Below, in pieces: positions 3,151 to 7,080 of a stretch of DNA of 64,000 nucleotides; positions within the stretch are counted from its first letter, which is position 1, and each line of letters opens with the position of its first letter. The translations under genes were made by a program, and so were the position numbers. The stretch is from Alkalispirochaeta sp. (lineage in GTDB: Bacteria > Spirochaetota > Spirochaetia > DSM-27196 > Alkalispirochaetaceae). The DNA is taken from NCBI GenBank assembly GCA_965242725.1, contig CBDESZ010000034.1, positions 1 through 64,000 of the forward strand, in the 5' to 3' direction. The notes beneath the pieces are model-generated. The model was not told the origin of the DNA, did no database searches, and saw nothing but the letters and a program-made list of their open reading frames with translations.

Positions 3151-3184
3151 TTATAGACTGAACTTCGTTCTGCCGGGATTCGCA

Positions 3185-3226
3185 CCCCATCGGTCGGTTC
3201 AAACCGGCTCGATGGGGGTTTTTTTT
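3185..3226 (+). terminator. Rho-independent terminator of oadGAB
   Basis: CCCCATCG-GTCGGT-TCAA-ACCGGCT-CGATGGGG hairpin followed by T8. Confidence 0.85.
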
Positions 3227-3284
3227 GCCCTTTCCGTCACCGCCCGCGCCCCCCGCGCGCCCCGCCGCCGAACCGACGGGAAGG

Positions 3285-3313
3285 AAAAAAAGGGACGCCC
3301 TCAGGCGTCCCTT
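3285..3313 (-). terminator. Rho-independent terminator of the choline/betaine-binding protein gene
   Basis: GGGACGCC-CTCA-GGCGTCCC stem preceded by A7 on + (U-tract on -). Confidence 0.85.
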
Positions 3314-3333
3314 CGCGTTGGTGTGGTGGTTCC

Positions 3334-4323
3334 TCAAATGCCGAGGGCATCCTGCGCCACCGGAAGTGCCGGTTCGCCGTCAACCGTTTCAACGCCTTCC
3401 AGCCATTCCGCGAGAATCGCCGGATTTTCCTGCAGCCACGCTCTGGCCGCTTCCCGTGCATCGGCGCCTTCACCGATTTCACCCATGATCGCACCCTCCA
3501 TTTCCAGAGTGAAATAGAGATTGTTAAAGAACTGCGCCAGATTGGGATACTCCTCAAGGAATCCGACCCGGAAGTTGGTATAGACCGTCGCGGCACCGTA
3601 GTCGGGACCGAAGTAGTCATCACCGCCTGAGAGGTATTCCATATCCAGATAGTTGTTCATCGGATGGGGAGCCCAGCCGAGAAAGACGATCGGTTCTTCA
3701 TCGGGAAATCGTGCCTGAGCTTCCGCGAGCATGCCCGCTTCACTTGAGGCGGCGACTTCAAATTCTCCGAGACCAAAGGCGTCCTCATTGATCATCTGCC
3801 AGATGAGCTGATTTCCGTCGTTCCCCGCCTCGATACCGTGGATTGTGTACTCCAGCTCCTCACCGAATTCGGCAATGTCGGAAAAATCGGTCAGGCCCGC
3901 ATTGTATAGATAGGACGGAACGGCGAGGGTGTATTTGGCGCCTTCAAGGTTGACGGGGCCCTGTTTCACCGTACCTTCATCAAAGTACTGATTGGCGATC
4001 GTTCCCATGGAGGGCATCCAGTTTCCGAGAAAAACGTCGACGTCACCACCCGCCATACCTTCATACGCCATCGGAACGGCGACGGATACCGACGTTGTCT
4101 CATAGCCGATCGCCTCCAGTACGAGCCGTGTCGTCGCGGTGGTGGCAATGATGTCGGTCCAGGCCACTTCCGCAAAATCAACGGTCGTTGCCTCGGGAGT
4201 CATCTCCTCCTGTGCGGGAGCTGCGGCTTCCGCCTCCGCCTCGCCCTGACCACCGGCAAGCACAAGTCCTGACAGGGCAATGAATAAGGTCATCACCATC
4301 AATAGTTTTCTTGTTGCGTTCAT
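3334..4323 (-). CDS. Choline/glycine-betaine ABC transporter substrate-binding protein (ChoX/OpuAC family)
   Basis: WTDIIATT, DVFLGNWMPS, GAKYTLAVP, GIEAGNDGN and VFLGWAPHPMN motifs. AGGAGGA lies 10 nt upstream of ATG 4323. Confidence 0.9.
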   Translation of the reverse strand: MNATRKLLMVMTLFIALSGLVLAGGQGEAEAEAAAPAQEEMTPEATTVDFAEVAWTDIIATTATTRLVLEAIGYETTSVSVAVPMAYEGMAGGDVDVFLGNWMPSMGTIANQYFDEGTVKQGPVNLEGAKYTLAVPSYLYNAGLTDFSDIAEFGEELEYTIHGIEAGNDGNQLIWQMINEDAFGLGEFEVAASSEAGMLAEAQARFPDEEPIVFLGWAPHPMNNYLDMEYLSGGDDYFGPDYGAATVYTNFRVGFLEEYPNLAQFFNNLYFTLEMEGAIMGEIGEGADAREAARAWLQENPAILAEWLEGVETVDGEPALPVAQDALGI

Positions 4324-4508
4324 AATCAACATATCCTCCTCTATTGTTTATTGTACTAAATATTACCCCCATATAACGGTATATTCAAGGGTAATTATTG
4401 CGTCATAAAAACTTTTTTGACTCGGATTCTCCGCGAAGTAACGTGTTTCGTAATCGAGTATTCCCGTAAATATCTATATAGTTGGTATTTACAACGGAGT
4501 CGACGGGC

Positions 4509-4541
4509 TTGCGCTGCGATCAAAAATACTGTACAGTATTT
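4509..4541 (+). promoter_or_regulatory. Sigma70-type promoter of the SDR-betB operon overlapped by a perfect 18-bp palindrome
   Basis: TTGCGC(4509)-17 nt-TACAGT(4532); AAATACTGTACAGTATTT at 4524-4541 is self-complementary. Confidence 0.7.
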
Positions 4542-4635
4542 AAACTTGTTCCGCTAAAGTTTATGGCACTACACGTAATTTGCGAAATAGCGGGAATTGT
4601 ATCAGAAATCTATTTTTAAAAGAGAGGAACGAGAT

Positions 4636-5472
4636 ATGAGTGAACAGTACTTGAAAGGTCGAGTTGCGATGGTAACCGGCGGCGCATCGGGAATGGGACG
4701 CGCCATGGCGCTTGCTTTTGCCCAGGCCGGAGCCGACGTCGGTATCGGCTCCCTTCTCAGCGACGCTCCCGCCAAGAACGCCGAAGGCGAACTGGTAAAC
4801 CGACCGGGGCGGGCGGAACTTGAGAAGACAAAGAAGGATATAGAATCATGCGGTGTACGTTGTGTCGCCGTCGATCTTGACGTCACCAACACTGAAAGCG
4901 TTAAAAAATTTCACAAGGCCGTCGTCGACGGACTTGGCGAGGTGGACATCCTTGCCAATGCGGCAGGCATCACGGCGGAACAGACGGTCACCGGTCATAC
5001 CGAGTCGCTGTGGCTCAAGGTCATGGACGTCAACGCCAACGGCGTGTACCGCGTTACCCGTGAAGTACTACCCGGCATGATAGAGCGACGCTGGGGTCGG
5101 GTTATCAACATCGCCTCCACCGCTGCAAGCGTCGGGGCGCCGATGTCGCCTGCGTACTGCGCAAGCAAGGCGGCCGTGGCCGGCTTCACCCGCGCCATCG
5201 CACAGGAAGGGGCGGAAGCGCTCGTCACCGCCAACAGCATCAGCCCCGGATGGGTGGAAACGACGTTCGGCGTTGAATGGCTCAGTGATATCGCGGAAAA
5301 GCAGATGCACACAAAGGGTGACCTCTTTATCCAGCAGCAGAAGGCGGAAAACCCCCAGAAGCGGATGATTCAGCCCCTTGAAATCGGCGCACTTGCCGCA
5401 TTTCTCTGTCGCGATGAAGCGGTCGGCATAACCGGTCAGGATCTCACCGTTTCCGCCGGTTCCCTCTGGTAA
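4636..5472 (+). CDS. Short-chain dehydrogenase/reductase (classical SDR)
   Basis: TGGASGMG, NAAG, YCASK and ISPGWVET motifs; GAGG RBS before ATG 4636. Confidence 0.92.
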   Translation: MSEQYLKGRVAMVTGGASGMGRAMALAFAQAGADVGIGSLLSDAPAKNAEGELVNRPGRAELEKTKKDIESCGVRCVAVDLDVTNTESVKKFHKAVVDGLGEVDILANAAGITAEQTVTGHTESLWLKVMDVNANGVYRVTREVLPGMIERRWGRVINIASTAASVGAPMSPAYCASKAAVAGFTRAIAQEGAEALVTANSISPGWVETTFGVEWLSDIAEKQMHTKGDLFIQQQKAENPQKRMIQPLEIGALAAFLCRDEAVGITGQDLTVSAGSLW

Positions 5473-5490
5473 TCGTACGGGGAGGAGCGT

Positions 5491-6993
5491 ATGGAGAAAT
5501 ATCTGAAGAAAAACAGAACGGGAAAGATGTACATCGACGGAGAGTGGCGGGAAGCCGCTTCCGGTAAAACGAGAGATATCATCTATCCCTTTGACCAGCG
5601 CCACATCGCCACCGTAACCGACGGTGACGTCGCGGATGCCCGGGCGGCAATTGCCGCCGCCCGTCGCGCATTTGACTCTGGTGAATGGGCCAACACCCCG
5701 GCCGGCGAGCGAGGCGCCCTTGTCGGAAAGCTGGCGGACCTTATAGAACGGGATGCGGAAGAGCTGGCGGCCCTTGAAAGCTGGGACACCGCAAAGACGA
5801 TGGAAGAGAGCCGTTGGGATATGGCGGATATCGCGGGAATCTTCCGCTACTACGCGGGCCTGGCCGACAAGGACGGCGGCGAGGTCATCGCGACGCCCAT
5901 TGCCAACACATCAAGCCGACTTGTCCGTGAGCCCGTCGGTGTGTGCGGACAGATCTCCCCGTGGAACTATCCCCTTCTTCAGGCGTCTTGGAAGATGGCC
6001 CCCGCCCTCGCCGCGGGAAATACAATCGTCATGAAGCCAAGTGAAGACACTCCACTGACGACGATTAAGGTCACCGAGCTTGCCGAGGAGGCGGGGTTTC
6101 CCAAAGGTGTCGTCAACCTCGTGCTCGGCCCAGGCTCGACGGTGGGCAACGAACTTGCGGAAAGCGTCGATGTAGATCTCATCAGTTTTACCGGCGGTAT
6201 CCAGACGGGCCGCTCCATCATGAAAGCCGCCACGGGAAACATGAAGAAGATCGCCTTTGAACTGGGTGGCAAGAACCCAAACATCATCTTTGCCGACACC
6301 GATTTTGAACTTGCCGTGGACTACGTCCTCAACGGCATCTTCTTTCACGCCGGACAGGTGTGCTCGGCAGGGGCACGCCTCATCGTGGAGGACTCCCTTC
6401 ACGACAGGCTCATCGCGGCGGTGGTGGAACGGGCAAAGAAGATCCGTATGGGAGACGCCTTTGACCCCGAAACGGAGATGGGGCCCCTCATTTCCGAGAA
6501 ACACCGCGCCAAAGTGGAGAACTACATCAAAATCGGCAAGGAAGAGGGAGCAAAACTCGTCCTCGGCGGAGAACGCCCCAGCGACAAGGCGCTGCAAAAG
6601 GGATTTTTCGTCATGCCGACGATTTTCACCGACTGCGACACCTCGATGCGCATCGTCCAGGAAGAGGTTTTCGGACCGGTCCTGACGGTTGAACGCTTCA
6701 AGACGGAAGAAGAGGCTATAAAAATCGCCAACGATACGACCTACGGACTCTCAGGCGCGGTATGGACCCGCGACCAGGATCGGGCCCACCGCGTATCGTC
6801 GGCCCTCCGCATGGGCACCGTCTGGATCAACGATTTCAATATCTACTTTGCCCAGGCGCCGTGGGGCGGATACAAGCAGTCAGGTATCGGTCGCGAGCTT
6901 GGCGCGATGGGACTTGAAGAGTATACGGAAGTGAAACATGTCTACCAGAATCACGCCACCAAACCGGTCGGCTGGTTCGGCAAAGGCAGCTGA
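5491..6993 (+). CDS. betB: Betaine aldehyde dehydrogenase (GbsA/BetB-like ALDH)
   Basis: PWNYPLLQASWK, FELGGKNP, HAGQVCSAG, EEVFGPV and APWGGYKQSG motifs. Resembles GbsA-type BADH and sits next to a choline-binding protein gene. Confidence 0.85.
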   Translation: MEKYLKKNRTGKMYIDGEWREAASGKTRDIIYPFDQRHIATVTDGDVADARAAIAAARRAFDSGEWANTPAGERGALVGKLADLIERDAEELAALESWDTAKTMEESRWDMADIAGIFRYYAGLADKDGGEVIATPIANTSSRLVREPVGVCGQISPWNYPLLQASWKMAPALAAGNTIVMKPSEDTPLTTIKVTELAEEAGFPKGVVNLVLGPGSTVGNELAESVDVDLISFTGGIQTGRSIMKAATGNMKKIAFELGGKNPNIIFADTDFELAVDYVLNGIFFHAGQVCSAGARLIVEDSLHDRLIAAVVERAKKIRMGDAFDPETEMGPLISEKHRAKVENYIKIGKEEGAKLVLGGERPSDKALQKGFFVMPTIFTDCDTSMRIVQEEVFGPVLTVERFKTEEEAIKIANDTTYGLSGAVWTRDQDRAHRVSSALRMGTVWINDFNIYFAQAPWGGYKQSGIGRELGAMGLEEYTEVKHVYQNHATKPVGWFGKGS

Positions 6994-7013
6994 TCCGACG
7001 GATCGGCATCATG

Positions 7014-7040
7014 GCGCGTCTTCGGACGCGTTTTTTTTTT
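7014..7040 (+). terminator. Rho-independent terminator after betB
   Basis: GCGCGTC-TTCG-GACGCG followed by T10. Confidence 0.9.
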
Positions 7041-7080
7041 GCGCCCCCGGGATCTCCGGAGGAATCCATGCCGGACAAAT

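Follow-up and report, generated by a model that had tools for sequence, protein, structure and literature searches.

A short-chain dehydrogenase linked to betB and choX as a candidate choline dehydrogenase in Alkalispirochaeta and other bacteria

Choline is canonically converted to betaine aldehyde by BetA, a GMC flavoenzyme, by the Fe-type alcohol dehydrogenase GbsB or by choline oxidase. In genomes and metatranscriptomes, the choline-to-betaine pathway is scored through betA, gbsB, codA and the gene for choline monooxygenase (CMO), according to the accessible part of PMC12324868. Short-chain dehydrogenases/reductases (SDRs) can also act on the choline/betaine aldehyde pair: the accessible text of 10.1101/559534 describes fungal ATRR R2 as reducing betaine aldehyde to choline. 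No SDR choline dehydrogenase was described in the literature searched, which took in few subscription and older papers and was judged from titles and the openings of abstracts; a search of the same scope directed at homocholine dehydrogenase likewise turned up no such description. Here we analyze a locus of Alkalispirochaeta sp. (assembly GCA_965242725.1) within positions 1 to 64,000 of contig CBDESZ010000034.1, a stretch hereafter called the window. It comprises a gene for a ChoX-type choline-binding protein on the minus strand and, divergent from it on the plus strand, genes for an SDR and the betaine aldehyde dehydrogenase (BADH) BetB. Based on sequence comparisons, we think the following route probable: choline would be taken up by ChoX together with a shared permease and oxidized by the SDR, with NAD+, to betaine aldehyde, from which BetB would form glycine betaine, BetA and GbsB having been displaced.

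The identities of the two partner genes are established by profile, structure and residue matches. The binding protein scores just under the TIGR03414 cut-off, which 19 of 22 ChoX matches in the same order pass, and its best match in the Protein Data Bank (PDB) is ChoX of S. meliloti. It retains all seven residues (W43, D45, W90, Y119, N156, D157, W205) listed as binding choline in that protein in the accessible part of PMC8371380. No permease or ATPase gene lies beside choX at the locus; a ProV/ProW system encoded on contig C17 of the same genome could serve the lone binding protein. BetB exceeds the cut-off of the TIGR01804 BADH equivalog, has its closest structures in S. aureus BetB, and carries the catalytic Cys and Glu together with Y158, W165, Y450 and W456. 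It keeps 12 of the 14 active-site residues checked, as taken from the accessible part of PMC4427200, and differs in H448N and P449I.

At the sensitivity searched, no canonical enzyme for the first step was found in the genome carrying the window, which is 91.8% complete. The GMC domain (PF00732) has no match there, no BetA or choline oxidase over cut-off was found, and no Rieske alpha subunit was found. The best of four Fe-type alcohol dehydrogenase genes reaches 242.7 bits against a cut-off of 550 for the GbsB model NF053866; it was rejected as a GbsB, being under cut-off and adjoining an MdlD-like aldehyde dehydrogenase (ALDH) gene rather than a BADH gene. The initial annotation, which had stated that none of the canonical enzymes is encoded at the locus, is borne out by the search of this genome for betA and gbsB.

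The SDR is linked to the bet genes far beyond the window. Its nearest relatives occur in halophilic and alkaliphilic spirochaetes, with 85% identity in Alkalispirochaeta alkalica, of which strain DSM 8900 (L013) is a cultured carrier. Three scans of genome contigs gave 50 distinct loci with an SDR of at least 55% identity. In a quick tree, the window SDR falls within a 49-row branch (SH-aLRT 99; two fragments omitted); the tree leaves out fragments L045, L050, L052, L060 and L125, repeats L008, L098, L112 and L193, and rows below 39% identity. The clade carries labels of at least eight phyla (Spirochaetota, Pseudomonadota, Actinomycetota, Chlamydiota, Myxococcota, Bdellovibrionota, Thermodesulfobacteriota, Chloroflexota). 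A betB gene is directly adjacent on the same strand in 38 of the 50 loci (27 downstream, 11 upstream), ChoX, ProX, ProW or BCCT genes are present in 35, and betB or a quaternary-amine transporter in 44. Of the remaining six SDRs, two lie behind an aldehyde:ferredoxin oxidoreductase gene and one before a sarcosine oxidase cluster; the other three are from short contigs or sit at the start of their contig. All seven choline-binding residues are retained by the adjacent ChoX in 22 of the 24 ChoX-type rows that come from genome loci of the clade. Among more distant SDRs taken as controls, a BADH reaching 55% identity occurs in 0/23 loci at 42-55% SDR identity (two of them repeats) and 0/166 below 42%, which excludes chance linkage; any marker is present in three loci of each set. 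Two BetB lineages about 40% alike serve as partners, a Firmicute-like one in spirochaetes and a separate one elsewhere, so the SDR-betB pairing has originated, or been re-formed, on at least two occasions.

The distribution of the SDR was also compared with that of betA, and in an independent lineage the two exclude one another. Among 84 genomes of the same order, the SDR is present in 22, BADH in 24, ChoX in 22 and SDR with BADH in 21, while betA over cut-off is found in none. The four SDR/BADH mismatches comprise two contig ends, a sub-threshold ALDH and an internally deleted SDR (G108). In this last genome, a 41-codon in-frame remnant joining the N- and C-terminal ends precedes betB (L278:422-546), reflecting either a true deletion or an assembly collapse. 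The reverse test, starting from betB, sampled 301 genomes of the class of G031 (Acidimicrobiia according to the title of L041), 37 of them with betB. Five of these have the SDR without betA, 32 have betA without the SDR (29 over cut-off and three partial, of which two are seen to be cut by a contig end), and none has both; 17 betB-negative genomes of this class yielded the SDR in none and betA in two. Gene order is proW-betB-SDR in five loci (L379-L382, L384) and proW-betB-betA in two (L383, L387), such that the SDR occupies the betA slot behind proW-betB in this class.

The enzyme itself is a classical SDR, with TGxxxGxG and NAG motifs, catalytic N133, S161, Y174 and K178, and a Rossmann fold. 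It contains only SDR domains and no GMC_oxred domain, and its model (pLDDT 91.5) has TM scores of 0.8-0.87 to known SDRs. It passes the cut-off of none among the best 25 NCBIfam models, the best match being TIGR03971 (185.9 bits, cut-off 300). Searches of the PDB by sequence and by fold gave generic SDRs only, at no more than 38% identity and with tied Z-scores; a search of the ESM Atlas returned generic SDR names only.

Comparison with hydroxybutyrate dehydrogenases (HBDHs) points to an altered substrate pocket. In these enzymes, we take a Gln, a His, a Lys and a second Gln to be the carboxylate-binding residues, having found no paper for the residue numbers. These positions align with T113, A163, S171 and W215 of the SDR, a set that is invariant or nearly so in 115 homologues, and neighbouring pocket positions hold W206 and F211. 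E115, A163, S171, W206, F211 and W215 are each invariant, and W206, F211 and W215 are not kept together in any aligned row outside the clade. The resulting pocket, aromatic and acidic without basic residues, would fit a cationic substrate lacking a carboxylate. A carnitine-like substrate, which the initial annotation had offered as an alternative, is weakened accordingly: ChoX keeps the residues for the choline hydroxyl, and the SDR lacks the presumed carboxylate-binding residues.

An insertion after strand beta-2, previously put at about 15 residues, is real and slightly longer, at 17-18 residues, as judged from the gaps it leaves in alignments with the hydroxybutyrate dehydrogenase 6zzq and with cyanobacterial sister SDRs. 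It carries a conserved G51-E52 and P57 (E52 in 113/115 and P57 in 115/115 homologues) and is the lowest-confidence part of the model (pLDDT 72-77). Dongiaceae and acetophenone-carboxylase (Apc)-linked sister clades also have an insertion there, so the betB-linked clade is not alone in having one. Strand beta-2 ends in Ser-Leu. At this point NAD enzymes typically have Asp and NADP enzymes Arg. Leu rather than Arg follows beta-2 in all 115 clade homologues, while Arg stands at the position or next to it in most relatives that lack the insertion. E52 of the insertion may act as a stand-in for the Asp of NAD enzymes.

In the proposed pathway, choline bound by ChoX would be handed to a ProV/ProW-type permease encoded elsewhere. 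The substrate, reaction direction and cofactor that we infer would make the SDR a soluble nicotinamide-dependent choline dehydrogenase, in which the S161/Y174/K178 triad would transfer hydride from the CH2OH group of choline to NAD+; in the pocket geometry suggested by alignment, W206, F211, W215 and E115 would probably hold the trimethylammonium group. Co-transcribed BetB would clear the toxic aldehyde and pull the unfavourable first step forward. As MttB and choline kinase were not found in the window's genome and CutC scored far under its cut-off there, osmoprotection is probably the use of betaine in this spirochaete; in Acidimicrobiia and others, betaine would feed demethylation.

Several observations weigh against this assignment. 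Over its cut-off, betA is present in two of the 50 clade genomes and probably in a third: Thiohalophilus (L027) has SDR-betB-betA-choX in one run, G136 has betA elsewhere in its genome, and G025 has a probable, partial betA, cut by a contig end, whose best PDB match is a choline dehydrogenase. No gene passes NF053866 in the 50 clade genomes, but this narrow model is Bacillus-centred and most of the genomes are incomplete metagenome-assembled genomes, which could let a distant Fe-type enzyme escape detection. With SDRs 82-84% identical, the five SDR-bearing genomes of the exclusion test are closely related, so the exclusion counts as one or a few events rather than five. In 13 clade genomes tested that have no whole adjacent betB, BADH over cut-off was found in only three; this result is softened by PMC4744692, the accessible part of which reports betB of R. 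pomeroyi as involved but not essential and counts betB in 37/52 and betA in 51/52 roseobacters. Of 38 metagenome clade loci, only ten have betB and 24 any marker, and betA was found in none. Some metagenome SDRs sit among genes for trimethylamine N-oxide (TMAO) demethylase, trimethylamine (TMA) monooxygenase or formaldehyde metabolism; those of L281-L284 are surrounded by genes for TMAO demethylase, TMA monooxygenase and glutamine-synthetase-III-like proteins, and some members occur in methylamine clusters without betB. At L284:3439-8380, the SDR stands between TMAO demethylase and TMA monooxygenase genes, both over cut-off. Given the coexistence with betA in two to three genomes, the choline dehydrogenase activity first suggested in the initial annotation is a hypothesis that is supported, by linkage to betB and choX, lack of a canonical enzyme and exclusion of betA, and not proven.

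The SDR might instead prefer a choline analogue (N,N-dimethylethanolamine, homocholine, beta-methylcholine, dimethylsulfonioethanol or arsenocholine) or be broad in range, with BetB completing the oxidation. We regard this as unlikely, although it would account for the betA genes retained in L027 and G136, where the ChoX next to the SDR carries Gly in place of D45. Members in tertiary-methylamine and dimethylsulfoniopropionate (DMSP)-demethylase clusters are also in its favour, and sister clades with carboxylase-like or enolase-family genes indicate that the wider family varies in substrate. Choline itself better fits the one-for-one exchange of SDR and betA in the same operon slot and the intact binding residues of adjacent ChoX proteins. 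Furthermore, oxidation of a secondary alcohol yields a ketone, which BetB cannot use. A similarly doubtful proposal, compatible with choline as substrate, is that the SDR is a nicotinoprotein: the insertion would bury a non-exchangeable NAD, and the enzyme would need a co-substrate or external carrier, or would dismutate betaine aldehyde. The insertion falls between beta-2 and the second helix, where mycofactocin-linked SDRs have the loop that buries NAD, as described in the accessible parts of PMC5264612 and PMC12985038. TIGR03971, the best NCBIfam match, and alignment of the model over 266-272 residues to five mycofactocin-type structures, compared with mostly 238-262 for other SDRs, point the same way. 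However, the score is far under the TIGR03971 cut-off, structural Z-scores are within 1 of those of hydroxybutyrate dehydrogenases and FabG, mftC was not found in the 91.8% complete genome, no conserved carrier gene lies nearby, and the loop is the least confidently modelled region. Such a loop is, in the accessible text of PMC12985038, necessary but not sufficient for tight NAD binding.

Two further readings seem highly improbable. One would have the SDR work in reverse, as an NAD(P)H-dependent betaine aldehyde reductase for detoxification or choline supply, like ATRR R2. To supply the aldehyde, no betA was found in 47 of the 50 clade genomes and no GbsB over cut-off in any of the 50, and a reductase would compete with co-transcribed BetB. 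ATRR is a precedent, and insertion-less relatives with Arg after beta-2, which we take as a sign of NADP use, lie beside NRPS-like or PKS/sulfotransferase genes (L113, L044); the clade, in contrast, has Leu at this position throughout. The other would make it a 3-hydroxybutyrate- or D-carnitine-type dehydrogenase, or an enzyme unrelated to the bet genes. The closest solved relatives are indeed hydroxybutyrate dehydrogenases and FabG, at 30-34% identity, and two sources label homologues as 3-hydroxybutyrate dehydrogenase. Nevertheless, the SDR misses both HBDH cut-offs (182 vs 258 and 180 vs 307 bits), the presumed carboxylate-binding positions are replaced, and the control SDRs exclude a chance linkage to the bet genes.

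We lean towards a wider claim, likewise drawn from sequence: that a widespread, unrecognised SDR family forms a further choline-oxidizing class beside BetA, choline oxidase, GbsB and choline monooxygenase. Its members would need no flavin, metal, oxygen or quinone, would have displaced betA in at least two lineages and would pair with BADH or aldehyde:ferredoxin oxidoreductase, their aromatic pocket for the ammonium group and the loop covering NAD being additions to a hydroxybutyrate-dehydrogenase-like scaffold. In its boldest form, the claim would make them nicotinoproteins. If the SDR does catalyse the first step, haloalkaliphilic spirochaetes, some Acidimicrobiia, Chlamydiales, Myxococcota and others would currently be mis-scored, either as having no such pathway or as possessing an orphan betB. 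Such a family could also explain how fermentative halophiles without a respiratory acceptor make betaine from choline, and a small (30-kDa), soluble, NAD-linked choline dehydrogenase would be useful for choline assays and betaine engineering.

Other gene arrangements were observed around the clade and its relatives. The SDR lies directly behind aldehyde:ferredoxin oxidoreductase at L035:1808-4650 and L038:4105-6837, in deltaproteobacteria-type genomes without a BADH over cut-off; these are candidates for ferredoxin-linked betaine aldehyde oxidation. Genes for a Rieske oxygenase weakly like CntA or GbcA, a BCCT transporter and the SDR stand in a row on Myxococcota-labelled and metagenome contigs (L102, L115, L288-L290, L318). 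A sister clade at 44-47% identity (L053, L056, L057, L324, L326, L330) is found behind Apc-like genes and often precedes a ProX/ChoX-type binding protein, which keeps six or seven ChoX residues in L324, L326 and L330. Speculatively, this clade may oxidize a secondary alcohol of a quaternary amine, for example beta-methylcholine, to a ketone that is then carboxylated. Paired sister-clade SDRs adjoin enolase-superfamily genes in Dongiaceae and relatives (L047, L048, L059, L114), some with a sarcosine/dimethylglycine-methyltransferase-like gene. Among the insertion-less relatives with Arg after beta-2, those at L113:378-6356 and L044:2-10868 have as neighbours an A-MT-T-R nonribosomal peptide synthetase (NRPS)-like gene or polyketide synthase (PKS) and Sulfotransfer_5 genes; on a speculative view, L113 might represent a reductive route to choline or choline sulfate in bacteria, comparable to that of ATRR. 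In the window's own genome (G000), contig C5 carries an operon of ThDP decarboxylase, aminotransferase, ProV/ProW/OsmF-like transporter and ALDH genes (L409:8108-15079), the ALDH scoring 513 bits on the BADH model, under cut-off. We speculate that this operon is a candidate for a new kind of Ehrlich-type catabolic pathway.

The layout of the window locus is summarized in Table 1. The three open reading frames were confirmed, as was the earlier description of a ChoX-like gene divergent from a terminator-closed SDR-BADH operon, through profile and PDB matches and hairpin-U terminators. SDR and betB are separated by 18 bp. The SDR start was placed at ATG 4636, preceded by a GAGGA ribosome site; the ORF finder instead begins at TTG 4597. 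The sigma-70-type promoter is putative: it scores below the scanner threshold, and aligning 15 spirochaete intergenic regions shows its two boxes to be the most conserved blocks. On one side the locus is flanked by what we take, from its open reading frame, to be an oadB-like gene, and on the other by a CLC channel gene. A strong terminator-like hairpin behind the upstream gene (3165-3232, z -3.2) faces the choX terminator. Recent transfer was rejected, since the GC content of the three genes (0.56-0.60) matches that of the genome (0.577).

Table 1. Features of the choX/SDR/betB locus, in window coordinates.
Feature	Position	Strand	Evidence
Intrinsic terminator of choX	3289..3314	-	11-bp stem and U-run; -20.1 kcal/mol, z -4.0, 0/200 shuffles equal
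ChoX-type choline-binding protein of an ABC transporter	3334..4332	-	TIGR03414 375.3 bits (cut-off 379.05); PDB 2reg E 6e-85; 7 binding residues
Putative sigma-70-type promoter of SDR-betB	4509..4537	+	TTGCGC, 17 nt, TACAGT
Classical SDR P0001, 278 aa, candidate choline dehydrogenase	4636..5472	+	Pfam adh_short; motifs, clade, neighbourhood
Insertion after strand beta-2, 17-18 residues (about residues 41-59)	4756..4812	+	Alignment gaps vs 6zzq and cyanobacterial sister SDRs
Betaine aldehyde dehydrogenase BetB/GbsA, Firmicute-like	5491..6993	+	TIGR01804 706.6 bits (cut-off 668.6); S. aureus BetB E 2e-201
Intrinsic terminator of SDR-betB	7013..7041 (hairpin 7013-7032)	+	UUCG loop, U-run; -14.6 kcal/mol, z -2.7, 2/200 shuffles equal

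Compared with known systems, the window locus shares its transporter and BADH partners, operon slot and proposed reaction with the BetA/BetB pathway and its ChoXWV or BetT transporters. BetA is a GMC flavoprotein of roughly 550 residues; the first enzyme here is a 278-residue SDR that would need neither flavin nor respiratory quinone, and it lacks the GMC_oxred domain of the BetA family (TIGR01810). Bacillus GbsAB is, like the route proposed for the window locus, soluble, nicotinamide-linked and encoded by two genes, and the window BADH is of the Firmicute type. However, the fold of GbsB is unrelated to that of the SDR, which has no metal site, and NF053866 is passed by no gene in the window's genome, as in the clade genomes. 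Fungal ATRR R2, a YdfG-like SDR, places the same fold on the betaine aldehyde/choline pair, but is reductive, NADPH-linked and fused in an NRPS-like protein, according to the accessible text of 10.1101/559534; the likeness considered here is one of fold and substrate pair. D-3-hydroxybutyrate dehydrogenases (PRK12429, TIGR01963) provide the closest characterised scaffold, with a PGW motif and lid region in common, and differ in their carboxylate-binding residues and in lacking the insertion. Mycofactocin-coupled SDRs (TIGR03971; carveol dehydrogenase) carry their insertion at the equivalent point of the topology, covering the adenosine site, and are 25-29% identical to the window SDR; the loop sequence differs, and the window SDR has Ser where they have an acidic residue at the end of beta-2. 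The SDR thus most likely works like GbsB or BetA yet belongs to neither family, which would make the route a variant of the known betaine pathway.

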